Assembly: GCA_964373665.1 (NCBI GenBank)
Contig: CAYJVM010000001.1
Span: 9,546 to 73,545, forward strand
Length of the DNA: 64,000 bases
Direction of reading: 5' to 3'
Source of the DNA: an uncultured archaeon
Lineage (GTDB): Archaea > Aenigmatarchaeota > Aenigmatarchaeia > CG10238-14 > SCSR01
Below the pieces are notes generated by a model that was not told the DNA's origin, made no database searches, and was given only the letters and a program-made list of their open reading frames with translations. The position numbers and the translations under genes are program-made. Positions 4,188 through 57,988 of this stretch are shown piece after piece. Position 1 is the stretch's first letter; the number at the start of each line of letters is the position of its first letter.

Positions 4188-5510
4188 TTGTTTCAAGAAG
4201 TCTTTACTTCTCAAGGCATTTCCATGGTCGACTTTAAGAAAGTTTGGGTATGGTATTCCCGCGAATCCGTCCAAAAAGCTCTTCTTGAGATATCAAAAGA
4301 CCGTGAAGTGATTTCTGTTTTTCAGGACGGGGGATTCGGCAGGCGACCGGACATACTACAATATCCCGCAGACATAACCCAGTCGGTGGCAAACGGCACA
4401 GTAGCATTCCACGGCTCGGTCGAAAGATGGACTAATCCCATGAATCTTGGAGTCGGATTGGGTAAGAAGGAACTTGACAACCTGAGAAAAGGATGGGACG
4501 TTATTATAGACCCAGACGTCAAGGATTTTGAAATCTCTAAAATAGTCGCCAAGTCAATAATCAATGGATTGGAGAAGCACAAGATCAAGAACTATTCCAT
4601 TAAATTCACAGGCGGCAAAGGGTTCCACATAGGAGTCGGCTTCGAGTCGTTTCCAGATATGATTAATCTGCAGAAAACGAGCGCTCGTTATCCGATGCTA
4701 TCGCATGCGATTATCGAATATCTAAAATGGTATTTGAAAGACGAGCTTAAGGAAAAGTTGCTTAGCCTCGATGACGCGGAAGATCTTGCAAAAAGGGCCG
4801 GCAAAACACTCCATGATGTGGTTACCGAAAATGAGTTTGATCCCTACAAGCTGGTTTCGATGGACCTTTTTGGATCGCGACATTTGTTCAGATTGCCGTT
4901 TTCGCTGCACGAGTCGACTCTGCTGGTAAGCCTGCCGATAAATCCTGAAAAGATAGACAGGTTCACAAAAGAGGATGCGACCATTGACAAAGCCAAAATT
5001 GAAGAAAAGTTTTTGATACCAAAAATTGAGGGGGATGGTGAAGGACTGGTAGTTGAAGCTCTTGACTGGGCGTCCAAATTCAAGGTGGAAGAAATGGTTG
5101 CAACGCCTCGCAAGTTCAACATCCAGGTAAAGGAAGTGCCTGAGGGTTTCTTTCCGCCGTGTATTAAGAACATACTTGATACTGGTTTGATGGAAGGCAG
5201 GAAGCGCGCCGTATTCATCCTGATAACCTTCCTCAGGAATATGGGTTGGAACGACGAAAAGATTGAGAAAAGGATATTCGAGTGGAACGAGAAAAATGTC
5301 CCTCCATTGAGAGCCAACTATTTACGATCGCAGCTGAGATGGCACTTTAGGCAGGAGAGGAATTTGCTGCCGCCCAACTGCGAGAACGATGTTTTCTACA
5401 GGCAGCTTGGGCTTTACGACATCTGTTGCAAAGAGATTGACCATTCTAATGTAAAGAATCCAGTCAACGTTCCTTTGCGCAGACTGAGGGAAGGGAGGAA
5501 GCACAAGTAA
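4188..5510 (+). CDS. priS: DNA primase catalytic subunit PriS fused to a C-terminal PriL-CTD-like 4-Cys (Fe-S) domain
   Basis: AEP primase motif I VIIDPD, motif II FTGGKGFHIGV, motif III FRLPFSLHES. The C-terminal ~140 aa carry FFPPCIKNIL...LPPNCEN...YDICCKE, resembling the PPCM-containing Fe-S domain of the primase large subunit. Confidence 0.7.
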   Translation: MFQEVFTSQGISMVDFKKVWVWYSRESVQKALLEISKDREVISVFQDGGFGRRPDILQYPADITQSVANGTVAFHGSVERWTNPMNLGVGLGKKELDNLRKGWDVIIDPDVKDFEISKIVAKSIINGLEKHKIKNYSIKFTGGKGFHIGVGFESFPDMINLQKTSARYPMLSHAIIEYLKWYLKDELKEKLLSLDDAEDLAKRAGKTLHDVVTENEFDPYKLVSMDLFGSRHLFRLPFSLHESTLLVSLPINPEKIDRFTKEDATIDKAKIEEKFLIPKIEGDGEGLVVEALDWASKFKVEEMVATPRKFNIQVKEVPEGFFPPCIKNILDTGLMEGRKRAVFILITFLRNMGWNDEKIEKRIFEWNEKNVPPLRANYLRSQLRWHFRQERNLLPPNCENDVFYRQLGLYDICCKEIDHSNVKNPVNVPLRRLREGRKHK

Positions 5511-5555
5511 CGCAAATCTATTAATGCTTTCATTTAACCTTATAATTACGATACA

Positions 5556-6065
5556 ATGCCTGAAGAGACAATCACTTTTGAACTGATAAGAAGGATACAT
5601 TTGGACGAACAAAGGACGCCTGGCCTGACCAAGCTGCCGCCGAACTTTTTCCAAGCCGTATCTGAATATATGGCACAGAAGAAACAGCTTGAGCTGGATG
5701 ACAGGAGGACTGTGCTTGAGGCGAGAAGCATAGAGAATATGGTGCAGAACATTTTTGACAGGAGGGAAAGGAAGATACTCAACCATGCCATAATTTCCGC
5801 AAGGACAGGCTTACCGCCTGAAAACATGGTCGATGAGGAAAAGCTCTTTTACAAATCTGTCTTGAACCTGATCAAGGCTAGAAGGGACATATTCAAGTCG
5901 CCCAAAGTTGAATCGAAGCCAGTTGTAATTTTTAAGGAAGATGTCCCGGAATTCTTGGGCTTGGATGAAAAAACATACGGACCGTTCAAGAAGGGCGACA
6001 CAGCGACACTGCCAGAGGAGAACATGAAAATTTTGCTTGAAAGGGAAGCCATAGAGGTAATGTGA
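5556..6065 (+). CDS. GINS subunit (Gins15/Gins51-like)
   Basis: C-terminal B-domain-like segment TYGPFKKGDTATLPEENMKILLEREAIE. The gene is adjacent to priS, the known priS-gins15 synteny in Crenarchaeota/TACK archaea. Size is 169 aa. Confidence 0.45.
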   Translation: MPEETITFELIRRIHLDEQRTPGLTKLPPNFFQAVSEYMAQKKQLELDDRRTVLEARSIENMVQNIFDRRERKILNHAIISARTGLPPENMVDEEKLFYKSVLNLIKARRDIFKSPKVESKPVVIFKEDVPEFLGLDEKTYGPFKKGDTATLPEENMKILLEREAIEVM

Positions 6066-6091
6066 ATAAACTTTTAAACTAGATGTCATAA

Positions 6092-6385
6092 TTGATTAAA
6101 ATGAAATTCCCCCAAAAAATGAAGACATTTTGCCCCAAGTGCAAAAAGCACACTTTGCACACAGTCGAGATTACAAAGAAGAAACCTAGGGGCGCTATGA
6201 AGCACGGGCAGAGAATTTTTATGCGCAAGATGAAAGGATATGGAAGCTTTCCTAGACCCCAGCCAGATCACGAGAAGAGCACAAAGAAGGTCGATCTTCG
6301 ATACAAGTGTTCCGAATGCGGCAAGAAGCATATGCGCGGAAGCGGCTGGAGGGCAAAGAAATTCGAGATTGTGAAGGTGGATTAG
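6092..6385 (+). CDS. rpl44e: Ribosomal protein L44e
   Basis: CPKCKKH...CSECGK zinc ribbon, basic 97-aa protein, followed by rps27e (conserved archaeal gene pair). Confidence 0.85.
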   Translation: MIKMKFPQKMKTFCPKCKKHTLHTVEITKKKPRGAMKHGQRIFMRKMKGYGSFPRPQPDHEKSTKKVDLRYKCSECGKKHMRGSGWRAKKFEIVKVD

Positions 6386-47483: not shown

Positions 47484-47579
47484 TACGTTCTGTTGTTATT
47501 TGACACTATAAATATAAAGCTTTATGCTTTCACAGTAGTTCGAGAAGTAGGTTTAAAAGTTGAAAATTAATCTCATTTT

Positions 47580-47747
47580 ATGTTACAAGATCGCCCTTTA
47601 ACATGTGATAAATGTGGTCAATCAAGCAATTATCCCAAAAATGAAGCATATAAAGACGGTGTGACATGCAAAAATTGCAATAAGGAGATAGATACGACTA
47701 AACTAAAAGTTCTCGACGTGGTAAAAGCATTTAGAGAAGAAGACTAG
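47580..47747 (+). CDS. Small Zn-ribbon protein (55 aa)
   Basis: MLQDRPLTCDKCGQ...VTCKNCNKEI; below the track threshold; abuts the transposase gene. Confidence 0.3.
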   Translation: MLQDRPLTCDKCGQSSNYPKNEAYKDGVTCKNCNKEIDTTKLKVLDVVKAFREED

Positions 47748-49315
47748 GTATGAACAATCTCATAAAGAGATTTCAAGAATAGCTTAAAGGTAACTACCCT
47801 TTTTGCAGCGTCCTTTATTCCAAGTTCTAACATTACAAGTAGGTTGATTAATGTCCATAAATTGTATAGTGCAACCGAAAACAGAAAATAGAATAATCTT
47901 ATTGAATAATTGTTAGATGTTGTCTTAACTAAACCTTCTCTTTTCTTAACACGGTATCCAGTTTCTATTCCCCATCTCTTACCATACATTCTAGGCAGGT
48001 TTTCAATCAAATCCACATCGTGACTGTTAATTGGAATGTTGGTTGCTATCTTCATCAGACCTTTAGTTCCTTCAACCAGAACAAGGTTCTTTATGATAGC
48101 GTTGCCTCTCTTATAGTTATGAATAACAAATGGTGGTGATACAGTTTCTATAACTTTCTTAACGCCTCTGTCATCAGGCAGTGGTACCACATAATTCAAT
48201 TTCATTGACTGCAACAGGTTGAATATTTTCTCGTTAGCGAATCCTCTATCCATGTAAATCTTGTTGATCTTGATTTTCTTCTGAGTATATTCTAACAACT
48301 CTTTAACTAAATCAGCTTCTCTATCGAAGATGAAAACAGGGAAAGCACATAACGTAAACCTAGTACCGTTTTCTACAATATCAAGAGTAATGTACTTGAA
48401 GTATCTGATAGTACCGTGATCATATTTGCTGTTGACGATGTTGGGATGGTTAGGATCTCCATAATAATGTTGGAAAGTATAGTCAACTGCAACATCAAAC
48501 TTTCTCTTATTAAATTTTCCAGACCTTTTAGCTATCCTAAACAACTCATCCGAAACTTTGGTAAATATGGCCTTGGTAGATTTAGGGTCGTGCTTCTTCA
48601 GATGATAAAGAATTGTGTTGGAAGCTGGTGAAATGGAGCCATTCTTCTTGTAGGACAATGCTCCACCATTCGTGAAACTACCTTCCAATGCCGAATGTAC
48701 TAGAACATCTAATATAGTGTTTTTAGTGTATTTTGCGTTATGCTTTATGTCAAGTTTTATCTTAGGATATATTATCTGTCTTAATCTTTTGGAGAGTTCG
48801 CTTAATTTCTGCTCCTTTTGATATTGTACATTGGTTTCTTTAACTGGCTCTATTTTTTCTTCTATTTTCGGAATTTCTGTGTCGAAACTCAGATCGAATT
48901 TCTCGGATATTTCCCTAATTTTTTTGACTATCAGTTCTATAATTTCCTTTTCTTCCTGAATGAGCTTGTGAACAAGAAAATAGGAAAAGCTCCTTTGGTC
49001 AGGTACCATTAATGTGTTGGTTTCGTCTTTGTCAAAACCTAGATTAAGTGCGTCGTTTTCGTTTGACTTTAGATAATCCGATAGATTTTTGGAGGATTTA
49101 ATTCCTTTCAATTGTTTGTAAATCAAGGCTCTTATCAACGATAATTTGGAGAATCTTATCATTTCTTCATCTGGTATTATGTGACCTATCTCCAGTTTAG
49201 ATAGAAATTCAGATAACTTGATAGAGCTAACATTCTTTAAACTAACAAAATTCTTATATACAGTCTTTTCAATTTTACTAATGGGGATTGTTGCTGTCAT
49301 AGGTAACATCTCCAC
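47744..49315 (-). CDS. DDE transposase, IS4-superfamily (IS1634/ISH3-like size)
   Basis: 523 aa; C-terminal KRWGIETGYRVKKRE (Y..RW.IE....K signature of IS4-type DDE transposases). Confidence 0.7.
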   Translation of the reverse strand: MEMLPMTATIPISKIEKTVYKNFVSLKNVSSIKLSEFLSKLEIGHIIPDEEMIRFSKLSLIRALIYKQLKGIKSSKNLSDYLKSNENDALNLGFDKDETNTLMVPDQRSFSYFLVHKLIQEEKEIIELIVKKIREISEKFDLSFDTEIPKIEEKIEPVKETNVQYQKEQKLSELSKRLRQIIYPKIKLDIKHNAKYTKNTILDVLVHSALEGSFTNGGALSYKKNGSISPASNTILYHLKKHDPKSTKAIFTKVSDELFRIAKRSGKFNKRKFDVAVDYTFQHYYGDPNHPNIVNSKYDHGTIRYFKYITLDIVENGTRFTLCAFPVFIFDREADLVKELLEYTQKKIKINKIYMDRGFANEKIFNLLQSMKLNYVVPLPDDRGVKKVIETVSPPFVIHNYKRGNAIIKNLVLVEGTKGLMKIATNIPINSHDVDLIENLPRMYGKRWGIETGYRVKKREGLVKTTSNNYSIRLFYFLFSVALYNLWTLINLLVMLELGIKDAAKRVVTFKLFLKSLYEIVHT

Positions 49316-49496
49316 CAGAGGAGTCAGTTCACAAGGCTAGCTCCTCTGGCTTACTTATCCAATGGGATAAGATTATTAGTCCTTATCCATAGTCTTATCC
49401 ATAGGTATAATATATATGTACTAGTATTTAAGCTTATCGGTATGGCTATCGGTAGAAAGTATTTAAATATAATAAACGAATTACTTTTAGATTAAT

Positions 49497-49700
49497 ATGG
49501 AAGACGAAATATCCAAGAAAATTGTCAGTACCATTAAATCTTCAGACGAACCAATCGAAACAAAAGAGATAGAACAAAAAATCAAAGGTGTGTCTAGAGA
49601 TAAGATATTGTACAGATTGTTTAATTTGAGAGGTGAAGGAGTAATTAAAGGAAAACAAGTAGGCTCAGGTAAAGGTACTTGGATATGGTGGAAAAAGTAA
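49497..49700 (+). CDS. Small winged-helix protein upstream of the R-M gene (candidate controller/regulator)
   Basis: IETKEIEQKIKGVSRDKILYRLFNLRGEGVIKGKQ. Confidence 0.45.
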   Translation: MEDEISKKIVSTIKSSDEPIETKEIEQKIKGVSRDKILYRLFNLRGEGVIKGKQVGSGKGTWIWWKK

Positions 49701-49718
49701 ACTGCATCAGGAGATAAT

Positions 49719-52700
49719 ATGGTAGAAAAACCAGACTTTGTAGATTCCGTCTTGAACTCTTTTAAGAATATATTAGGAGAGGTAGAGAAAGGCTCATCTG
49801 AACACGATATCAGATACAAGTTTGTCAAGTATTTTCTCGAGGATGTACTAGGTTACGAACCAAGACTGATCAAATGGGAAAAGAAGAGAGCTGACTTGAC
49901 CATCATAGACGATAACAATTTTTCTGTAATAATGATAGAAACGAAAAGACCCCAAGAGGACATAGAGAAAGCATCGATAGAAGAACAGGCTTTCAAGTAT
50001 GAGGAGGGAACTACAAAATACATAGGACTGACTAATTTTTCTCGGTTCAAATTATGGGAAACTAAGGATTCTAAAAGAGAACTGAAGGCGGACATAGACT
50101 TTTCGAGACTAATAGAAAGAAAAAGTGAACTATCGACTGAGGATAAAGGTAATATACTATTTCTGAATAATCTCACCAAAGATCAAATTTTTGATGCAAG
50201 AAAATACGAGAAATTCGACGAAACATATGCTAAAATCGATATAACGAAAGACGTTGGATTTAGAAAATTGTTGGAGAAGCTTAATTTCATTGCCAATAAT
50301 CTTTTGCTGGGATATACGCTGAAAGCATTTGGAGAATACAAAGAAGGTTATGGTAGATACCTGGAAGAATTGAAGCAAGTCGAGAAAGTGTCTAATAATT
50401 CGCATAAAGAAATTAATCATGGTGTGGCCAAGTTCAAGCAAAAGCTAGAGGAAAAATATGAAAAATACAGGACATTTTCTGGCTATTATTTATGGAAGGA
50501 GTATTCGGGAAAAGAGAACATTACAGATGATGAGATAAAGGAAGTTTTCTGCAAAGAAACAATTTACGTATTCCTTAACAAGTTGCTCTTCCTAAGAATA
50601 TGCGAAGATAAGGGATTGCTTGAGAAGAATATTTCAAACGGTGGAATCGAAGAGTTAAGAGCTGTCCTCAAAAAGAGATTTGAAAAAGATATCTTAAACA
50701 AAGAAATACTAAAGCTGGCTTTTGAGAGTGCGAAAGGTCTGTACTCCCATTTTTACGAGACGGGTATCTTGGATTGGTTTAGAACTGGAGATGGTGAACT
50801 AAACGAGTTGTTGAACAGAGTGCTGTGGATAATGAATTCGTTCAACTTTAGACATGTTGACAGGGATATACTAGGCAACCTTTATGAAAAATACCTTCCC
50901 AGTAACGAAAGAAAAAGATTGGGGGAATTTTACACACCAGTTGAGGTTATAGACTACATTTTAACGTCTGTTGGATATACTTACAGCTATGATATTGAAA
51001 CTAAAGATTTGTTAGATCCAGCGTGTGGTTCAGGCGGTTTCTTAGTTAGAGGTACAAGAAGATTAATTAGCAGGTATTTGATGAAATTTGGTAAATCTGA
51101 CAAGAAAGAATTGAGAGATCCTAAAAATTGGAAGGAGATTGTTAGTAGATTGTCACCTGACGAAGCAAAAATAATTCTTGAATCTATTAAAGAACATATT
51201 TATGGTCTTGATGTCAATCCTTTTGCCTGCCACATTGCTGAGATGAACCTTCTTTTTCAAGTAGTAGATTTGTATCAGAAAGCTAGAGAAAAATATAGAG
51301 ATTACAAGTTAGGAAGATTCAAAATATATAGAACAGATTCTTTGGAAAAACCTAGTCAAAAACAGATTTTTGATTACACCCATTCGACATTCTTGGAAGA
51401 GCAGGAAGAGATCGATAAGATTAAGAGCAAGAAGTTTGATTTTGTTACGGGTAACCCACCATATATCCGCGTACAAATGTTGGATGAGAGAGTGAAGAAG
51501 TATATTACCGAGAATTACAAAACGGCTTATAGCAACTTTGATTTATATGTTATTTTTATTGAGCGTGGTCTGAATTGGCTTAAGGATAATGGGAATTTTG
51601 GATACATTACGTCCAATCAATTCATAAATAGAGAATATGGTAAAAAATTAAGAAAATATATTTTGGAAAATTCCAAAATCATAAGCATAATAGATTTCGG
51701 TGATTCTGGAGTATTCAAGGATGCTACAAATTATCCAATGATACTGATTTTTAAAAGGGGCACACAAAAATCTAATAGGTTCAAATTTATAAAAGTAAAG
51801 CAATCGAAAGATAATTTAATTGGAGATATTTTTTCCAAGTTTAAGGAAAAAGAATATAATGGTCCTTATTTTGATATTTTTGAAATTGAACAGAATAAAC
51901 TTTCCGAAGAAACATGGCAACTATTTTCAGGTACAATAATTAAAATTCTAGAAAAGCTAGAAAAGAATATTAAACTGAAGGATCTGTGTAGAGAAAATGG
52001 TGTAGTAGTTGGTGTACAAACAGGATTAAATGATGTTTATGTTGTAAATAAAGACACTATTAACAAATACAAATTAGAAAGCAGTTTAATCAAAAAGTTG
52101 TTAGACAGTAGAGATGTAAGACGATGGAAAATAAATCATAGTGGACTGTATTTAATATACCCTTATTACGAAAGGGGTGGAAAAACAATCTTGATTGATG
52201 AAAAGACATTGAAGTCTGATTTTTCGAACGTTTATTCATATTTACTTGAAAATAAAAATAAACTTATAAAACGATGGGGTGTGAAAAACTGTTGGTATGA
52301 ATTGCCAACCGCAAGAACTCTAAATTTCTTTGAACAGAAAAAAATTTTAACTCCGACCATAAGTAATTTTAACAACTTTGCCTTAGATACAAATGGACTT
52401 TTCTTTGCGAAAGGAGCAGGAGGAAGCTATGGAATTATATTAAAAAATGATAGCAAAGATAACTATCTTTACATTTTGGGTCTGATAAATTCCAGATTGT
52501 TAGAATTCTACTTAAAGCAATTTCTTCCTGTAAAAGCCGGTGGATGGTATGAATATATAGCAGCATATCTGGAAAAACTCCCTATCAAACTTCCAGAAAC
52601 TGCAGAGGAAAAGAAAATTACCAATCAGATAATCAAGAAAGTAGACGAAATTTTAGAATTGCATAAATCTGGAATTGTGGATATAGACACTGCACTTGAA

Positions 52701-53096
52701 AATGTAGAAACAGAGAAACTATGCAATTTACCAAAAATAACATTCAATATAAAAGATGATGCTAAATTTGAGAAAGTTAAAACAGAAGGAAACAAAATTT
52801 ACATCAATTCTCAGGATTTCATAGAGGTCAAAGACAAGAAACTTAAGGACTTTGTTGAAATGTATCTCAACTTTAACAGTGAAAAGTTATCTAAAGATAT
52901 CAAAAGTATGCTTATCAACATTCCTATTCCAAAATCCGATGAAATTCTAAAAGATGTAATAGCTAAAGGCGGTATCGATTATTCACAGATTAAAGAAGAA
53001 ATTAGAAAACTAGAGCAGGAAATTAACGATTTGGTTTATCAAATTTATGGAATAACTAAAGAAGAACAACATGTTATAGATAATAGTATTAAATAA
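49719..53096 (+). CDS. Type IIG restriction-modification enzyme (fused PD-(D/E)xK endonuclease, gamma-class N6-adenine methyltransferase and target-recognition domain; Eco57I/MmeI-like)
   Basis: N-terminal D..E.K (ADLTIIDD..VIMIETKRP); MTase motif I LDPACGSGGFLV and motif IV FDFVTGNPPYIRV; 1125 aa. Confidence 0.8.
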   Translation: MVEKPDFVDSVLNSFKNILGEVEKGSSEHDIRYKFVKYFLEDVLGYEPRLIKWEKKRADLTIIDDNNFSVIMIETKRPQEDIEKASIEEQAFKYEEGTTKYIGLTNFSRFKLWETKDSKRELKADIDFSRLIERKSELSTEDKGNILFLNNLTKDQIFDARKYEKFDETYAKIDITKDVGFRKLLEKLNFIANNLLLGYTLKAFGEYKEGYGRYLEELKQVEKVSNNSHKEINHGVAKFKQKLEEKYEKYRTFSGYYLWKEYSGKENITDDEIKEVFCKETIYVFLNKLLFLRICEDKGLLEKNISNGGIEELRAVLKKRFEKDILNKEILKLAFESAKGLYSHFYETGILDWFRTGDGELNELLNRVLWIMNSFNFRHVDRDILGNLYEKYLPSNERKRLGEFYTPVEVIDYILTSVGYTYSYDIETKDLLDPACGSGGFLVRGTRRLISRYLMKFGKSDKKELRDPKNWKEIVSRLSPDEAKIILESIKEHIYGLDVNPFACHIAEMNLLFQVVDLYQKAREKYRDYKLGRFKIYRTDSLEKPSQKQIFDYTHSTFLEEQEEIDKIKSKKFDFVTGNPPYIRVQMLDERVKKYITENYKTAYSNFDLYVIFIERGLNWLKDNGNFGYITSNQFINREYGKKLRKYILENSKIISIIDFGDSGVFKDATNYPMILIFKRGTQKSNRFKFIKVKQSKDNLIGDIFSKFKEKEYNGPYFDIFEIEQNKLSEETWQLFSGTIIKILEKLEKNIKLKDLCRENGVVVGVQTGLNDVYVVNKDTINKYKLESSLIKKLLDSRDVRRWKINHSGLYLIYPYYERGGKTILIDEKTLKSDFSNVYSYLLENKNKLIKRWGVKNCWYELPTARTLNFFEQKKILTPTISNFNNFALDTNGLFFAKGAGGSYGIILKNDSKDNYLYILGLINSRLLEFYLKQFLPVKAGGWYEYIAAYLEKLPIKLPETAEEKKITNQIIKKVDEILELHKSGIVDIDTALENVETEKLCNLPKITFNIKDDAKFEKVKTEGNKIYINSQDFIEVKDKKLKDFVEMYLNFNSEKLSKDIKSMLINIPIPKSDEILKDVIAKGGIDYSQIKEEIRKLEQEINDLVYQIYGITKEEQHVIDNSIK

Positions 53097-53102
53097 TATA
53101 AC

Positions 53103-53594
53103 TTATTTTGGAATATACTTAATTACTTTTACCAAACCCTTCCATTGTTTCACGGGAATCTTAACAAACTTATTAGATGCAATATAAGATTCTATACTTT
53201 TAGAACTTAGAGACTTTGATACAGATGTGCCTTTTAAAATTAGTGTAAATGTACCTAAATCACCTAAACTTGTAAATCTACAAATTTTCTTATCATAGTA
53301 CTGTCCCGCATACATAGAACATACTTCGTTGCGTATTTCTGAGTCCAAATTAAGAGTTAATATTTCATGAATTACACCATTAGCTATTACATCTCCTTCA
53401 CCACTGACACAAACCTCATAGTTTTCCATAGTAAACTCAGGAGGACATACAATCAAATCATCAAGTTGTGCTAATGCATTTTCAACAGCCGGTAGTGTAG
53501 CATCTATAACTTGATCTGCAACCCACATTTGAAAGAGAAATACAATTAGAGCTGTTATACTAATGCCACCTATTATCGGTATACCCCCTTTCAT
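53103..53594 (-). CDS. Membrane-anchored/secreted protein with four Cys
   Basis: N-terminal TM GGIPIIGGISITALIVFLF; last gene of a minus-strand string. Confidence 0.4.
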   Translation of the reverse strand: MKGGIPIIGGISITALIVFLFQMWVADQVIDATLPAVENALAQLDDLIVCPPEFTMENYEVCVSGEGDVIANGVIHEILTLNLDSEIRNEVCSMYAGQYYDKKICRFTSLGDLGTFTLILKGTSVSKSLSSKSIESYIASNKFVKIPVKQWKGLVKVIKYIPK

Positions 53595-53905
53595 TAAATC
53601 ATCTTTAATAAACTAGTCTAATTCCAACTTCAGCCTCTTTTATAGCATTATTTTCAACGAGTTTGGATAATCCCCACATCAACAAAAAGAAACCACAAAT
53701 GCTTGCTAGAGTGTATGTTGAACTATCATTCCGATATTCTTGCTGATAATAGTTCACGAGTTCACCTCCTGTAGCTCTGCATATTTTCTATGCCTTTTAG
53801 AAAAAGGAAGATGCATCATATTGTACGCATAATTCCATTGCTTTTCCGTCATGGATTTGAAACCTTTATTACAAATATTACAAACTCTTTTTGATTTCAT
53901 AACAT

Positions 53906-54310
53906 TCAACCTCTAGGTGTCCAAATTTCATTTGCGGATATTCCAAGTTGACGAAGTCTTTCCTTAACTGACTCTCTGCTAGAACTAGTATTACACGTTT
54001 TTGGGACAACTATATGGAATTCACTTCCAGTAGTTCTTGATCTGTTGTAAAAGGCAGTCCATTGTCTTTCTGTATGTTGATCAAATATAGAACTACATGT
54101 TTCAGCTTCTAAAATAATAAGACTTCTATTAACACCATTTTTATAACAAGTTAAATCTGGTATATAACCATTAATGGAATCCGGCCTAGAGTAACCGTCC
54201 AAATCAGCTTTGATATCTGTACACCCAAGACTTTTAAAATGATTTGCCATCATTTCAATAAGTTGTATATGTTCTTTACTCTCTGCTGAGGTTCTAGTCA
54301 TAAAAATCAT
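53906..54310 (-). CDS. Hjc-like PD-(D/E)xK-fold protein, paralogue 2 (E-x-E-T variant)
   Basis: IQLIEMMANHFKSLGCTDIKADLDGY...PDLTCYKNGVNRSLIILEAET aligns to Hjc ERELv.lLek.GfaVvRsAGS...vDliA.ngk..l.IEvK; catalytic-position Lys replaced by Glu. Confidence 0.45.
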   Translation of the reverse strand: MIFMTRTSAESKEHIQLIEMMANHFKSLGCTDIKADLDGYSRPDSINGYIPDLTCYKNGVNRSLIILEAETCSSIFDQHTERQWTAFYNRSRTTGSEFHIVVPKTCNTSSSRESVKERLRQLGISANEIWTPRG

Positions 54311-54600
54311 CTCATACGTCTAACCCTAACCTCTGTATTTGGTCTATTTTTGGCATATTTCCTAAGGAGTCTCCTCTGATTAATATCTCTCCTGAAAGAA
54401 GTTGGGGTCTCAACTTCGACTATTCTAGTCTTCTTCCCTTTTTTTGCAATTATATCGGGTCTTACTGAATGACTGTGTACTCTAAGTGTTCTAGGTTTAT
54501 CGAATCCAGAAACATCTGCATGTACTCTCCAACCATAACTTTCTAACGCAGCAGCTCTTCTAATTACAGATTTATCGTGCTTCGAGATTTTACGGCTCAT
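54307..54600 (-). CDS. Hjc-like PD-(D/E)xK-fold protein, paralogue 1 (E-x-E-T variant)
   Basis: RRAAALESYGWRVHADVSGF...RPDIIAKKGKKTRIVEVET; same pattern as its neighbour; ATGA overlap. Confidence 0.45.
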   Translation of the reverse strand: MSRKISKHDKSVIRRAAALESYGWRVHADVSGFDKPRTLRVHSHSVRPDIIAKKGKKTRIVEVETPTSFRRDINQRRLLRKYAKNRPNTEVRVRRMR

Positions 54601-54723
54601 TTTCTTTCAATATTAATTATAAGCTAACACTTAAATACTTTGTTTTTGCATGTAGTTTGCGTATACTAGGTATAATATGGGGAAAGAACATACTGATATA
54701 AGGCTATAAAAGAAAATAATAAT

Positions 54724-55101
54724 ATGGTTGTACGATATGTATCTAAATTTATTACTGATGTGCAACCAGAAAAACTAAAATCAGAAAGTAAGATCTTTGA
54801 CATCTCAGATAAAATATTTCATCCCCTCAGAATGTTAATACTTTTTGATTTGGCTAAACACAAAGAAGCTTCTTTTCAGGAACTTAAAACTGCAACCCGT
54901 ACGACAGACGGTAATCTTGCAAGCCATCTAAGAGCTTTGGAGGAGAACGGTTTTGTTCGATATAAAAAGGAAATTAATGGAAAGCGTGTTATAACTTTTT
55001 ACCAACTAACAGAGTCTGGAAAAGACGAATTAAATAAACTAATCGAAGTGTTAACCCAACATCTCGAAAAACTTAAAGGTGATTCAGATGACAGATATTA
55101 A
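54724..55101 (+). CDS. Winged-helix (ArsR/TrmB-like) transcriptional regulator
   Basis: LRMLILFDLAKHKEASFQELKTATRTTDGNLASHLRALEENGFVRYKK..GKRVITFYQLTESG. Confidence 0.55.
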   Translation: MVVRYVSKFITDVQPEKLKSESKIFDISDKIFHPLRMLILFDLAKHKEASFQELKTATRTTDGNLASHLRALEENGFVRYKKEINGKRVITFYQLTESGKDELNKLIEVLTQHLEKLKGDSDDRY

Positions 55102-55552
55102 AAAAATATTAGCATGTTTAAACTATTTAGGAGTTTCATCTAATTTGAATTATTTTGCAAAGAGAATGCAAATACAAAAACTTATTTATTTAATACAAAT
55201 TTTTGGTGTAGATTTAGATTATAAATTTAATTGGTATCTTCACGGACCTTATAGTTCACCTTTGACTAAAATATTATTTGAGAATAAAAATATACCACGC
55301 GATTCGAGTAGTCTTACTCAAGGTGAAACTGAAAAATTAAGTAAGTTGAAAGAATTTCTAGGCGAAGATTTGCAATCGTCACATAATTTAGAAATCATAG
55401 TTTCCCTGCATTTTCTATTAATGGTAGGCAAATACCATCATAAAAGCGATAAAGAAATGATCGAACTTTTAAAAGAAAAGAAACCTTTCATTCCTCCAGA
55501 AAAAATAGAGAAATACTATGAAAAGATCAAGAAATTAATAGAAGAAAAATAA
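55079..55552 (+). CDS. Panacea-domain (DUF4065, SocA/PanA-like antitoxin domain) protein
   Basis: IQKLIYLIQIFGVDLDYKFNWYLHGPYSSPL matches the KLqKLLY...W..GPv signature; 23-nt overlap with the upstream wHTH gene. Confidence 0.5.
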   Translation: MIQMTDIKKILACLNYLGVSSNLNYFAKRMQIQKLIYLIQIFGVDLDYKFNWYLHGPYSSPLTKILFENKNIPRDSSSLTQGETEKLSKLKEFLGEDLQSSHNLEIIVSLHFLLMVGKYHHKSDKEMIELLKEKKPFIPPEKIEKYYEKIKKLIEEK

Positions 55553-55586
55553 ACAGTTGACTTTTACTAAAACATACCATTTTAAT

Positions 55587-55718
55587 CTGAAATAAAGTTG
55601 TCGTCTTTTATCCTTATATTTACGTTACTCCGTTTTTCTCTAGCTTTTAATCTTACACCAAACATTTCTGATAAATAGTTCAATTCCTGATACGATGTAG
55701 CCTTCTTTTTCATTAATG
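55587..55718 (-). pseudogene. Duplicated 3'-terminal fragment (~40 codons) of the double-HTH gene at 56598..57242
   Basis: The fragment translates as MKKKATSYQELNYLSEMFGVRLKAREKRSNVNIRIKDDNFISD. The intact C-terminus reads KKKTTSYQELNYLSQVFGIKLKAVEKRNTVNTTIKEISQVSKV. DNA identity is ~80% over ~130 bp. Confidence 0.6.
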
Positions 55719-55749
55719 ATATTTATTTGGATTTAATCAACTTCTATAA

Positions 55750-56403
55750 ATGATTGTAGGCATCGATAGTGCTAATAATTTGACATGCACAGGTATAATA
55801 TCTGGCAACGAATTGGAGATAACCGATTTTTACGAAGAACTTAGAACAATCTTTGCAAAAAGGAAAGTATATCCGCCATTCAAATGGGGCAATCTCACGG
55901 AAAATACTAGAAACTCATGTAAAAATGAGATAGAAGAATTGTTCAATAACCACGATTCCAAACTGAAATTCAACGTATTGTTCCATAAAAAGCCTCTTTC
56001 CATATCCAAAAAGGAAGTTTTGTTTGACATATTGCCAACATCCATTTCGGAAAATCTGGCAGAATGGATTAAAAACATTTCAGGATTTGTTATATTCGAA
56101 ATAGACAATGATTATAATATCAAAAACAAAAATACGCATGATTTCATTGAGAGCTTATTCAAGAGAATTATACCTACTCTTACGGACAAAATAATAACGA
56201 TCAGACGAGAACATGGTGTGCATAAGGTCACTATTAAGAAAAAAGTTGGTCCTAAAGACAGAAGCACAATTCATTTGGCAGGACGGGTTTCCAATGTCAA
56301 AGATTCGAGATCCATTCAGATAATAGACGTAATTCTAGGATATGTATTGAACAGAAAATGCAAATTTAGAAAAGATAAGCTGTATATTAGAACAATTTGT
56401 TGA
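55750..56403 (+). CDS. Hypothetical protein flanked by direct repeats (candidate toxin/effector; possible RNase-H-like fold)
   Basis: MIVGIDSANN.., ..IFEIDNDY.., ..IQIIDVILG resemble D/E/D of RuvC-like folds. This reading is speculative. Confidence 0.35.
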   Translation: MIVGIDSANNLTCTGIISGNELEITDFYEELRTIFAKRKVYPPFKWGNLTENTRNSCKNEIEELFNNHDSKLKFNVLFHKKPLSISKKEVLFDILPTSISENLAEWIKNISGFVIFEIDNDYNIKNKNTHDFIESLFKRIIPTLTDKIITIRREHGVHKVTIKKKVGPKDRSTIHLAGRVSNVKDSRSIQIIDVILGYVLNRKCKFRKDKLYIRTIC

Positions 56404-56597
56404 AAAAATTAAGATTGCTCCTCGCCTGTCGGCAAAGGAGTGAGTTTGTAGGCATTCCCAAGTCAACGCCCATAGGGGTCATAACTTGAGAACTGAAACT
56501 CTAATTATTAATACGGTACAGTAATATATAAAAGCACATCATTCGAAGCCTTTTAAGCTTTTCTGGTAAGCTACTTAAACATTCTAATTTGAGACAG

Positions 56598-57242
56598 TTA
56601 AACTTTTGAAACTTGGCTAATCTCTTTTATTGTGGTGTTAACAGTATTTCTCTTCTCTACAGCCTTTAATTTTATACCAAATACCTGTGATAAGTAATTC
56701 AGTTCTTGATAAGACGTAGTCTTCTTTTTCATCAACTTTAAAACTTCCTTCAACGCTTCTCCATTTTTATCTTGTAAAAAACAAACAGTCACACAAAACT
56801 TGCCCTTAAACAACCTAACCCTCCTGATGTTCAATTGGCTAGTCAAACTTCTTACAGCTCTAAGGTACGAATGTTTTTTCTTAGGCACTATAAAATACCC
56901 TTTATCAGTCAGTTCAGACAACACTTCCATGATAGGAGTACTACCAAACCTTCTGACAGAACCTCTGAGGTCATATGTCAGTAGATAGACAGTCTGTCTG
57001 TGAATCCCGAACATTTTAGCCAGTTCCAGAATATCAGTACCTTCATTAAAGAGTTTCCTTATCTCTTCCTTCTCTTCTGTGGTTAGTCTTCTAATCTGTC
57101 GTGGCAAGTCATCTGTATACCGTAAAACTTGCCATTTTTGGACACCTAGCTTTCTAGATATTTCCAATAGCTTGAAACCTCTTTTGTAGAGTTCTCTGAT
57201 CTGGTTAATGGTCTCGGCAGATAACTGTGATTTTCTAGGCAT
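56598..57242 (-). CDS. Double helix-turn-helix protein (transposase N-terminal-domain-like; no catalytic domain)
   Basis: Two resolvase/Tc1-type HTH repeats: INQIRELYKRGFKLLEISRKLGVQKWQVLRY and KEEIRKLFNEGTDILELAKMFGIHRQTVYLLTY. Confidence 0.45.
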   Translation of the reverse strand: MPRKSQLSAETINQIRELYKRGFKLLEISRKLGVQKWQVLRYTDDLPRQIRRLTTEEKEEIRKLFNEGTDILELAKMFGIHRQTVYLLTYDLRGSVRRFGSTPIMEVLSELTDKGYFIVPKKKHSYLRAVRSLTSQLNIRRVRLFKGKFCVTVCFLQDKNGEALKEVLKLMKKKTTSYQELNYLSQVFGIKLKAVEKRNTVNTTIKEISQVSKV

Positions 57243-57433
57243 GAGAAGAGCTTCTGTAATGCCTTTAAAAGCGATTTCTATACTCCATTATGATTTGGTA
57301 AAATTCGAGCAGAAAAATACTTTATTCTTGAACTCGGAATTTTCAAATTCTGCGTCTATTCGCCCTAAATCTCAAGAATTTGAGCTAGATTGGTAAATAA
57401 TTACTTATAGATCTACTGTTTCATGTTGATTTC

Positions 57434-57988
57434 ATGGCATACTCTTACAGAATGTTAAGGAAACTGATATTGGACAAGATAGCTCCAAATCACGACGCTG
57501 TCATCGAAGGCGGTATAGGAAACAATTTCCAAAGATTCCACTATTTCCGGCAATATGGATACAGAGGCTTGTATTTTGGAGTGGATGTGAAAAGGCCAAA
57601 TGAAGAGATACCAGAAGGCTTGACCTACCTGCAGGCAGACTGTTTCGACGAGGATTCTATGATAAATTACATGCTTGGCTTTAGGGTGAAGAATCCTTTC
57701 TTTGTCACAAATGCGGCTCTGGTCGACTGCCTACTTAACGGTTCCAATAGTTACAGAATGGTTGATGTTGTGGATGCCATGACTTTAATTTGCGGAGCAC
57801 AGATGCATCTGAAACCATTGAAAAACTTTTCGCCGAGAGAATTAAGGAAGTATGCGAGAACCGGTAGTCACACTGAAGATTATAGAAAGTTGGCGGAATT
57901 CCTGGAAGAAAGCAAAAGGGCCGGTTGGGAATATTATATCGAAGGCGGTATAGTCCTGCTCAATAAAAACAACTCTTTTCCAGACTGA
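57434..57988 (+). CDS. Hypothetical protein, possible small Rossmann/SAM-MTase-like fold
   Basis: VIEGGIGNN (G-rich loop) then FGVDV; weak. Confidence 0.3.
   Translation: MAYSYRMLRKLILDKIAPNHDAVIEGGIGNNFQRFHYFRQYGYRGLYFGVDVKRPNEEIPEGLTYLQADCFDEDSMINYMLGFRVKNPFFVTNAALVDCLLNGSNSYRMVDVVDAMTLICGAQMHLKPLKNFSPRELRKYARTGSHTEDYRKLAEFLEESKRAGWEYYIEGGIVLLNKNNSFPD

Follow-up and report, generated by a model that had tools for sequence, protein, structure and literature searches.

Within the window, the whole 64-kb stretch of archaeal DNA that was analyzed, the 3′ end of a gene encoding a double-HTH protein is found twice, on either side of other coding DNA. How did the second copy of this gene end arise, and how did the DNA between the copies come to be there? 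A repeat search aligned positions 55604–55716 with 56623–56735 over 113 nt at 73% identity, ungapped and with a spacing of 1019 nt, and a blastn search of the whole window with each copy as query returned an 83-nt local match (55636–55716 versus 56653–56735) at 79.5% identity with one gap (E = 3e-15). The figure depends on the span, ~80% belonging to the best 83 nt and ~73% to the full length; the preliminary description of the locus had given ~80%, and both measured values exceed the ~70% that it set as the floor for its call. Widespread low-complexity sequence, the alternative that it named, was checked by self-BLASTN of the window: there are two copies only, the next-best matches have E ≥ 0.03 and the sequence is not low-complexity.

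Coordinates and reading frames bear out the earlier placement of both copies on the minus strand, in the same orientation. The right copy (56598..56735, −) comprises the last 45 codons of the intact double-HTH gene (56598..57242, −), as had been described. The left copy (55582..55716, −), previously read as a 43-aa C-terminal fragment, is a relic of the gene's 3′ end with an intact 43-codon ORF (55582..55713), and the peptides of the two copies are 64% identical (tblastn E = 1e-14). Similarity sets in sharply at ATGAAAAAGAAG, a short 12-nt identical run at the 5′ edge of the repeat, and then reaches the stop codons, with identity declining toward them; counted from the common ATG, 81 of 111 nt are identical (73%). 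Differences between the copies are distributed 7/6/17 over the three codon positions and amount to 12 synonymous and 11 non-synonymous codon changes. This third-position excess indicates that the copies diverged as coding sequence in separate lineages and not by local decay. Between them lie two genes, where only one complete gene had been recognized: ORF217 (55750..56403, +) and a structured RNA gene (~56406–56512).

The double-HTH protein (214 aa) matches Pfam HTH_7 (3.5e-10) and HTH_38 (2e-7) and consists of two three-helix HTH domains at the N-terminus followed by a conserved C-terminal half; it also has a weak Cbp1-like match. The AF2 model is confident for residues 9–89 only. A domain border was considered as the explanation for the start of the repeat at Met171 and rejected, as the model puts residue 171 within a helix, in the low-confidence C-terminal half. 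Six homologues were found, and the gene adjoins that of ribosomal protein S8e in all four lineages with enough flanking DNA, with different cargo 3′ of the HTH stop codon in each of four lineages. In the window, the gene end forms the right edge of a variable island, low in GC (0.29–0.35 versus ~0.44), that extends between the LSM and S8e genes (47500..57300). The island contains a DDE transposase (47744–49315), an MmeI-like type IIG restriction-modification (RM) gene (49719–53096) and, by Pfam, PADLOC and NCBIfam, small ORFs, a winged-HTH gene and a DarG-like 157-aa ORF. No convincing terminal inverted repeats surround the island transposase. Three relatives (L001, L003 and L006) have the same island flanks with other cargo, and in them the HTH gene is present while the ORF217 module and the relic are both absent; among the lineages compared, relic and module occur in the window lineage only. 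The comparison with relatives that the preliminary description proposed thus yielded genomes free of cassette and relic, whereas the exact empty junction cannot be reconstructed because the relatives' cargo after the HTH gene differs.

The two gene ends were then compared with those of the homologues. The window HTH reading frame is intact at 214 aa, with a C-terminal tail that exceeds those of the other five homologues by 5–7 aa. The relic ends in ...NVNIRIKDD, where homologues end in ...NVNIMIKDNT or NVDIKIKDM, and matches the family at 16 of the 17 invariant positions of that segment. Against L001, the closest relative used as reference, identity is 57% for the distal 54 nt of the intact gene, 72% for the distal half of the relic and 82% for the HTH gene body. 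Informative sites favor the relic by 11 to 3 in the distal half and are split 4 (relic) to 6 (intact gene) in the proximal half; over the whole tail, the count of 15 versus 9 is not significant and the signal emerges only after the tail is halved, so that the assignment of native and imported ends depends on 14 informative sites (exact two-sided p ~0.06). Between the window and L001, amino-acid identity falls from 0.88 in the body to 0.65 in the tail, whereas in distant HTH pairs it rises from 0.62–0.64 in the body to 0.70–0.78 in the tail, and this discordance indicates that 3′ ends of the HTH gene have been exchanged. On these sequence comparisons, the distal half of the relic looks native and the distal tail of the intact gene looks imported. 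The difference between 72% and 57% fits a crossover inside the repeat, and the informative sites place the switch within nt 0–57, which is as finely as they can resolve it.

The protein-coding gene between the repeats encodes a stand-alone, single-domain protein of 217 aa, which can be described as a divergent DUF3800-type RNase H-fold protein. ORF217 has no Pfam match at E ≤ 0.1, nor at E ≤ 1, and PF12686 (DUF3800) is matched weakly by 10 of 41 ORF217 relatives (best E 2.5e-5). Its AF2 model (pLDDT 95) adopts an RNase H2-like fold, with RNases H2/H3 as the best structural matches. DUF3800 domains combine an RNase H2-like fold with two motifs, DE on the N-terminal and QxxD on the C-terminal side (PMC7736814). 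In ORF217, the N-terminal motif is D6-S7 and not D-E, while Q190xxD193 is present; D6 and D193 are invariant in the family, as is a third acidic residue, D121. A plasmid or virus origin was considered and rejected, as tblastn gave no match in PLSDB plasmids or INPHARED phages and none was found in the viral contigs scanned with the RNA pattern. The ORF217 family appears to be archaeal.

The second gene in the interval lies on the minus strand (56406..56512), convergent with ORF217 and abutting its stop codon, and specifies an RNA of ~90 nt, predicted to run from ~56502 to ~56410, with three covarying helices, a terminal hairpin (56418–56440) and a T-run. This RNA is kept downstream of every close ORF217 family member examined. 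Fourteen of 21 pairs change on both sides, 88% of cells are paired compared to at most 53% in shifted controls, and the loci matched by the covariance model include some left out of model building, with 31–72 bits. Read on the plus strand, the alignment contains 14 A-C versus 3 G-U cells, an excess that assigns the RNA to the minus strand. A TATA-like box, TTTATATA (56525..56532, −), lies ~20 nt upstream of the RNA motif, and all 10 loci have a box of the TTTAAATA/TTTATAAA type 19–22 nt away from the end of the motif. The box is a putative promoter for the RNA, and the hairpin plus T-run form the terminator. Searched with Rfam 15 at gathering thresholds, the whole window gave a tRNA only, and at E ≤ 10 the region 55400–57400 gave only a spurious snoRNA match (E = 5.9); a known RNA family, including Rfam DUF3800-I to XI, was rejected on these grounds. 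The RNA pattern was not found in viral contigs. An integron cassette (ORF plus attC) was also considered and set aside, as the structured element trails one protein family only, has a TATA-like box and terminator and is accompanied by no integrase.

Structured RNAs have been described beside DUF3800 (PF12686) genes as DUF3800-I to XI (Weinberg et al. 2017, PMC5737381). The pair in the window resembles these in that an RNase H-like protein gene lies beside a conserved, covarying RNA that is encoded on the opposite strand and carries a terminator hairpin (PMC5737381). It differs in that ORF217 falls below the Pfam model, the RNA lies outside all Rfam 15 families and, as far as the literature shows, repeat-bounded insertion has not been described for such pairs. 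DUF3800 domains are also part of type VII retrons and of TPR-DUF3800 proteins associated with Cas12a2 (PMC7736814, PMC10910872), with which ORF217 has in common the RNase H2-like fold, an acidic N-terminal motif (D6-S7 in ORF217), the C-terminal QxxD motif, a non-coding nucleic acid partner and a defence-type locus. Unlike these, it has no reverse transcriptase, CRISPR array or Cas gene nearby and comes with its own dedicated RNA. Most likely, the cargo would work as a nuclease-plus-RNA pair, either as a ribonucleoprotein or as a nuclease restrained by its own RNA. Such a pair would fit a role in defence or addiction, given the type IIG restriction enzyme in the same island.

The protein and RNA recur together in at least nine unrelated archaeal genomic contexts that have nothing else in common. 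An all-against-all tblastx comparison of eight module loci returned gene and RNA as the only common content, which marks the module as a portable unit. At the L015 locus, it resides in a 1.7-kb low-GC insert (0.31–0.35 versus flanks of 0.52–0.58) that is bounded by tRNA-Val and a 31-nt duplicate (94%) of the tRNA 3′ end, and no integrase gene was found in the insert. The L011 contig, 996 nt in length, carries the module with an identical 22 nt at both termini. Flanking direct repeats are absent at four further module loci (L009, L018, L021 and L022).

From the repeat spacing, the sharp onset of similarity and the absence of such a unit from L001, L003 and L006, the putative inserted cassette can be delimited tentatively to 55717..56735, 1019 bp or one repeat period. 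It would comprise ORF217 with its promoter stub, the RNA gene, the replacement gene end and a spacer of 85 nt. Most likely, ~1 kb of foreign DNA entered an archaeal gene for a DNA-binding protein by recombination within its last 45 codons. That this was an integration or Campbell-type recombination that brought a replacement gene end is the explanation we favor, and on the sequence evidence it is probable though not secure. The incoming DNA, small and either circular or linear, would have carried the RNase H-like DUF3800-type gene, the convergent small RNA gene and a ~135-bp HTH-family 3′ end derived from an HTH-family gene of another lineage. Campbell-style recombination with the resident HTH gene, at its 3′ end, would have occurred within the highly conserved first ~57 nt of the common segment (codons MKKKxTSYQELNYLSQ), and a crossover there would keep the resident gene whole, now ending in the imported tail, and move the original tail 1019 bp downstream, where it would persist as the 43-codon relic. 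The agent may have been a site-specific recombinase acting in trans or host homologous recombination via the short homology; the direction of the event, the circular intermediate and the enzyme are what we infer. The suggestion of the preliminary description, that a cassette was inserted or recombined at the 3′ end of the double-HTH gene, is supported by the relatives, the recurrence of the module, the L015 insert, the codon-position bias and the tail comparison. At 73–80% identity, the repeats offer poor homology for classical homologous recombination, which counts against integration, as do the lack of a recombinase gene in cassette and island, the lack of an exact empty site in the relatives, the small number of informative sites, the shortness of the identical run and the four module loci with no flanking repeats.

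Prophages e14 and 21 integrate in the 3′ end of Escherichia coli icd, and the displaced icd 3′ fragment, ‘icdC’, remains. The window resembles these cases in that recombination would have taken place in the 3′ coding end of a protein gene, with a diverged replacement end that keeps the gene intact. The displaced original end would be the direct repeat at the far junction, whose divergence is mostly synonymous. However, e14 and phage 21 are prophages of 15–40 kb with their own tyrosine integrase, whereas the window unit is 1 kb, integrase-free and archaeal and carries a nuclease and an RNA. Features expected of an integrative element are found in the same-orientation direct repeats from the target end with a displaced partial copy, and in the preserved frame with one xenologous end (214-aa ORF, 7/6/17 bias and tail/body discordance). 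An element-encoded site-specific recombinase was not found: searches with Pfam, NCBIfam and PADLOC gave no tyrosine or serine recombinase, integrase or resolvase catalytic domain in the cassette or island ORFs. Elements and islands that target tRNA genes likewise leave an intact target gene, an insert and a partial 3′ copy, and L015 at tRNA-Val shows the identical topology. In the window, by contrast, the target is a lineage-specific protein gene and the repeats are 135 nt at ~75% identity, not a short near-identical core; no tRNA fragment that could serve as an att site lies near the repeat, and an integrase gene is lacking from both the window cassette and the 1.7-kb L015 insert.

Among the other explanations considered, the one that survives best is island replacement with an illegitimate junction, although it is unlikely. 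In that scenario, the RNA/ORF217 module would be an old native neighbor of the HTH gene, and the low-GC RM island (49.7–55.7 kb) would have been imported from a donor along with a donor HTH gene end, joined homologously in the transposase/LSM flank and illegitimately inside the donor HTH gene, so that its last 43 codons remained. The HTH–LSM interval is indeed a cargo-swap hotspot with conserved flanks, the transposase is syntenic (67.6% nt identity to L001) and accompanied by a conserved 58-nt block, and coding-type divergence of the copies suits any xenologous origin. Island replacement, however, predicts that the intact tail is the one orthologous to L001, which is at odds with a distal half at 57% identity, below both the relic (72%) and the body (82%). 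It also requires a junction exactly on the Met codon as a coincidence, and in the parallel tRNA-bounded insert of L015, the module is inside the repeats and not outside.

Another possibility, which we regard as improbable, is that the cassette is self-mobile, with ORF217 and the structured RNA forming a new small recombinase or transposase that inserts a ~1-kb unit into gene 3′ ends. The unit would then represent a new minimal class of archaeal RNA-assisted recombinase or transposon that targets gene 3′ ends and supplies a replacement end, its targets being the protein gene in the window and tRNA-Val in L015. ORF217 resembles DDE/RuvC-type recombinases in its RNase H/RuvC-like fold and its three invariant acidic residues; its RNA partner is obligatory; repeat-bounded units of 0.97–1.7 kb occur at three loci with no integrase in any of them; and several Logan contigs of 0.9–1.0 kb hold nothing but the unit. 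Against self-mobility, four loci have no flanking repeats, the orientation of the module relative to the target is not the same in the window and L015, and the closest structural matches are RNases H2/H3 and not transposases. DUF3800 domains elsewhere go with retrons and Cas12a2 as presumed effectors (PMC7736814, PMC10910872). Moreover, the RNA loops are invariant across loci whose flanking repeats are unrelated, and complementarity between RNA and repeats is no better than chance. Guiding in the manner of a bridge RNA was rejected because the longest exact matches between RNA and repeats in the window, L011 and L015 were within the range of shuffled controls. IS110/IS1111 are small elements that combine an RNase H/RuvC-fold enzyme with a structured bridge RNA and insert at specific sequences. 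The window unit is likewise small, with an RNase H/RuvC-fold protein and a structured RNA, but ORF217 lacks the second (Tnp, serine) domain, and its RNA has invariant loops that show no complementarity to the flanking repeats. It is therefore not a member of IS110/IS1111, and there is no sign of bridge-RNA-like working. If it were a mobile unit after all, this would account for DUF3800 genes everywhere being accompanied by enigmatic structured RNAs.

Equally improbable is a local duplication or tandem-paralogue remnant in which the 43-aa peptide has been kept as the product of a useful micro-gene that might, for instance, partner or compete with the full-length protein. The relic begins with ATG, has no internal stop or frameshift, retains all but one of the invariant segment residues, follows an AT-rich TATA-like stretch and is called as a gene in public assemblies. 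However, no relative has a second copy or stand-alone version, the family-invariant Q186 is replaced by E in the relic, residue 171 falls inside a predicted helix and not at a domain border (the model being of low confidence there) and the aberrant tail of the intact gene is left unexplained. Chance or compositional resemblance in AT-rich DNA, to which the island GC of 29–35% might lend itself, has next to no probability and was rejected on the self-BLAST result (E = 3e-15, two copies only), the in-frame match across 42 codons and the 72–76% amino-acid identity of the relic to HTH genes of other genomes.

On the favored reading of integration, the footprint is ordinary and the cargo is new. 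The repeat identifies a hotspot of recombination at the 3′ end of a lineage-specific HTH gene, where archaeal lineages swap cargo and even the final codons of the gene itself. The RNA is a further DUF3800-type motif outside Rfam, coupled to a protein family barely detected by Pfam, and gives a first hint that DUF3800-type protein–RNA pairs move as repeat-bounded mini-cassettes. RNAs associated with DUF3800 have been unexplained since 2017. This archaeal nuclease and RNA form a compact pair with very strong covariation support, a clear strand call, a putative promoter and a terminator, which allows a direct test of whether they act as a nuclease within a ribonucleoprotein, as a toxin neutralized by its RNA or as a mobility factor.

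A repeat search across 53-60 kb of the window, which carries archaeal housekeeping genes (including those for ribosomal protein S8e and an LSM protein) at ~0.44 GC, returned a single long direct repeat, 55604-55716 versus 56623-56735 (113 nt, 73% ungapped identity, 1019 nt apart), in a low-GC stretch (0.29-0.35) at ~47.5-57.3 kb. When each copy was compared with the whole 64-kb window by blastn, the other copy was recovered (79.5% over 83 nt, E 3e-15) and no third was found, the remaining matches being no better than E 0.03. The repeat noted in the preliminary description is thus real and neither low-complexity nor dispersed, and the ~80% identity given there holds for the best 83 nt and not for the full length (~73%). 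The right copy comprises the last 45 codons of the 214-aa double-helix-turn-helix (HTH) gene (56598..57242, minus strand). The left copy lies on the same strand and, as had been proposed, still codes, being an intact 43-codon open reading frame (ORF; 55582..55713) whose protein is 64% identical to the right copy (tblastn E 1e-14). Similarity starts abruptly at a common ATGAAAAAGAAG, Met171 of the full HTH protein, and falls off toward both stop codons. Differences between the copies number 7/6/17 at codon positions 1/2/3; 12 of the codon changes are synonymous and 11 non-synonymous. This pattern indicates that the copies diverged in separate lineages, each within a working gene, and rules out decay after a local duplication.

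Several independent lines of evidence indicate that the interval between the copies is an insertion. Where one complete gene had been counted there are two, ORF217 (55750..56403, plus strand) and a structured RNA gene, and the suggested comparison with related genomes found the HTH gene with neither this module nor the 43-codon relic at the loci of three relatives (L001, L003 and L006). All-against-all tblastx of eight module loci showed only the gene and its RNA to be common to them; the module is portable. L015 is an independent example of the same topology: on this contig of ~0.55 GC, a tRNA-Val gene (6133-6206, minus strand) is followed by a 1.72-kb insert (4411-6131) with a GC of 0.31-0.35 between flanks of 0.52-0.58. 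The insert contains the module, a 75-aa ORF and no integrase gene, and is bounded at its far end by a 31-nt copy (94% identity) of the tRNA-Val 3' end (4380-4410 versus 6132-6162) that is not itself a tRNA. The L011 contig (996 nt, module only) has the same 22 nt, GGTATGAAAAAGAAAAAGGTAA, at both ends (1-22 and 975-996). Within them is ATGAAAAAGAA, the 11-mer with which the window repeat starts, though with respect to the module it points the other way. These ends would fit flanking direct repeats or a circle, although not decisively, and may be a coincidence. With the portable module, the module- and relic-free relatives, the L015 parallel and the coding-type divergence in its favor, the idea that a cassette recombined into the 3' end of the HTH gene was supported, and we consider this specific geometry moderately likely.

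Upstream of the ORF217-like gene, a ~27-nt motif (AGTTCTGTGTAACTAACGGTTGATTTT and variants, with a ATCAACNGTT core) was seen in L015 (5823-5848), with related copies in L008 (30-80). It recurs in direct and inverted form downstream of the L015 RNA (4907-4932, 4778-4804 and 4818-4830) and is absent from the window copy. The motif could be a regulator binding site or mark element ends.

The target gene encodes a protein that has two HTH_7/HTH_38-type domains and weakly resembles Cbp1, a multi-HTH protein, and the gene is rare, with only six clusters among 5.8 billion proteins searched. Wherever flanking DNA suffices, it directly adjoins the S8e gene and marks one border of a variable segment, the far end of which is the LSM gene in the window, L001 and L003; the L006 contig stops short of LSM. 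The cargo comprises a type IIG restriction enzyme and small ORFs in the window and L002 (same genome), a methyltransferase, YcaO, a nitroreductase and a radical-SAM enzyme in L001 (84% amino-acid identity), Band7/NfeD in L003, and a hydrolase with ThiF/YcaO in L006. None of the three relatives (0/3) has a second copy of the HTH gene end. Given its constant position and the lineage-specific cargo, the double-HTH gene belongs to the fixed part of the chromosome, and a hotspot of cargo exchange adjoins its 3' end.

Other features of the region were recorded. A DDE (IS4-like) transposase gene adjoins the LSM gene in synteny (window 47744-49315, minus strand; L001 17284-18921; 67.6% nucleotide identity) with no convincing terminal inverted repeats around it, and a ~58-nt conserved block (83%) lies past its 5' end at the inner cargo border (window 49633-49690; L001 17025-17077); these may represent a domesticated or old insertion sequence, or the hotspot's second border for recombination. 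The main low-GC cargo is a 1125-aa MmeI-like type IIG restriction-modification enzyme (49719-53096, plus strand; PADLOC REase_MTase_IIG, 9.8e-76), the identical protein in L002 matching Pfam MmeI_Mtase, Eco57I and TaqI_C. A 157-aa ORF (55079-55552, plus strand) matches the antitoxin DarG over a short internal stretch only (PADLOC 1.8e-9; NCBIfam 8.6e-7, far below cutoff), with no DarT-like toxin seen. The end of a winged-HTH (HTH_34/ArsR-like) gene (54724-55101, plus strand) runs into this ORF, and the two may form a small regulator/antitoxin-like pair. Between the HTH and S8e genes, a 184-aa ORF, not conserved in the relatives, where other small ORFs take its place, contains a perfect 16-nt direct repeat, ATCGAAGGCGGTATAG (57503-57518 and 57938-57953).

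Which gene end is native was assessed against L001, the closest relative, to which the HTH gene body is 82% identical. Across the full 111-nt tail, L001 agrees with the relic at 15 sites and with the intact copy at nine, which is not significant. In the proximal 57 nt, four sites favor the relic and six the intact copy (79% and 82% identity, respectively), whereas in the distal 54 nt 11 favor the relic and three the intact copy (72% versus 57%). Interpolation from other pairs gives ~71% for an orthologous distal tail, with which the relic agrees and the intact copy does not. On the simplest reading, the crossover took place within the proximal, conserved portion of the shared stretch, the intact HTH gene is now finished by an imported tail, and the relic bears the original distal end. 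Such an outcome would be expected of Campbell-type recombination with incoming DNA that brings a homologous 135-bp gene end. This direction is probable rather than proven, as the statistics are modest (11 versus 3, exact p ~0.06). Between distant HTH pairs, no part of the protein is better conserved than the tail (amino-acid identity 0.70-0.78 versus 0.62-0.64 for the body), whereas the two closest genomes reverse the order (0.65 versus 0.88). This mismatch of tail and body histories among the window, L001, L003 and L006 suggests that the gene end has been replaced repeatedly at the hotspot.

ORF217 has no assignment of its own in Pfam, NCBIfam or PADLOC. An exhaustive HMMER search placed it in a small family (57 representatives, ~210 aa) in which D6, D121 and D193 are invariant and H45, H79, P96 and G197 nearly so. 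Weak Pfam DUF3800 matches were obtained for ten of 41 family members (best E 2.5e-5), and the C-terminal Q190xxD193 fits the QxxD motif described for DUF3800 (PMC7736814). The AlphaFold model is very confident (pLDDT 95.4). By predicted structure ORF217 is a DUF3800 protein, and it probably works like one, but it falls below the Pfam model.

Directly after the ORF217 stop codon lies a GC-richer patch. Alignable sequence occupies the same place in the closest homologue, P0008 (56% identity; L008), where one 8-bp stem has undergone three fully compensatory changes, and the same element lies 3' of the gene in L009/L010, L011, L012, L014 and L015. A covariance model built from seven sequences of this set found just one copy in the window (56406-56512, minus strand) and matched beyond its training loci in L021 (71.6 bits), L018-L020 (61.5 bits) and L022-L024 (31.3 bits); every match abuts the stop codon (L008 784-890, L009 6644-6750, L011 781-891, L012 6630-6739, L014 11282-11390, L015 5003-5110, L018 5643-5749, L021 1104-1210 and L022 2480-2581). 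Across ten distinct sequences, 14 of 21 pairs changed on both sides, 88% of cells were paired versus ≤53% with slid partners, and the observed covariation was reached by none of 500 shuffles. If the helices are read on the strand of ORF217, 14 cells are A-C and only three G-U (one doubtful invariant pair excluded), which argues that the opposite strand folds. On that strand, a TATA-like box (TTTAAATA or TTTATAAA) lies 19-22 nt upstream of the motif at every locus, and in most loci a hairpin and then a T-run stand at its other end, beside the ORF stop codon. The predicted window RNA would be ~90 nt, minus strand, from ~56502 to 56410, convergent with ORF217. Rfam 15 gave no matching family, even at E ≤ 10. 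Eleven unrelated structured RNAs of unknown function have been described as companions of DUF3800 genes, on both flanks and in both orientations, often with terminators (Weinberg et al., PMC5737381); the RNA here looks like a further, archaeal example, belonging to none of the curated DUF3800 RNA families.

Neither the cassette nor any other part of the island encodes a tyrosine or serine recombinase, so an integrase in trans, host homologous recombination or the cassette's RNase H-fold protein must have acted. An integrase could have been supplied in trans, or the host machinery could have used the short, imperfect homology. That the RNase H-fold protein moves its own cassette, which would be a novel case, has a low probability: RNA-to-repeat complementarity is no greater than in shuffled controls in the window, L011 and L015, the RNA loops are invariant although the three repeat pairs are unrelated in sequence, the module is oriented differently toward its target in the window than in L015, and flanking repeats were undetected at four module loci (L009, L018, L021 and L022). 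The window cassette is neither an IS110 bridge-RNA element nor an integron cassette, as the defining features of each were sought and not found.

The common form of 3'-end integration is the tRNA-targeting island; among protein genes, the best-known cases are e14 and phage 21 in Escherichia coli icd. Like such elements with a replacement end, the window has same-orientation repeats, a preserved reading frame and a xenologous end; unlike them, its cassette lacks an element-encoded integrase. The footprint itself is ordinary. What is new is the cargo, in which a DUF3800-like RNase H-fold protein is paired with a new antisense small RNA that has strong support, a variant of the DUF3800-RNA pairing that recurs in archaeal genomes as a compact, sometimes repeat-bounded unit. 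Presumed nuclease effectors with DUF3800 domains are found alongside type VII retrons and a branch of Cas12a2 (PMC7736814, PMC10910872), and the island also holds an MmeI-like type IIG restriction enzyme and a DarG-like fragment. The most economical guess is that the cargo would have a defense or addiction role, as a nuclease that its RNA either controls or is loaded onto, and it is this cargo, rather than the footprint, that is worth pursuing.
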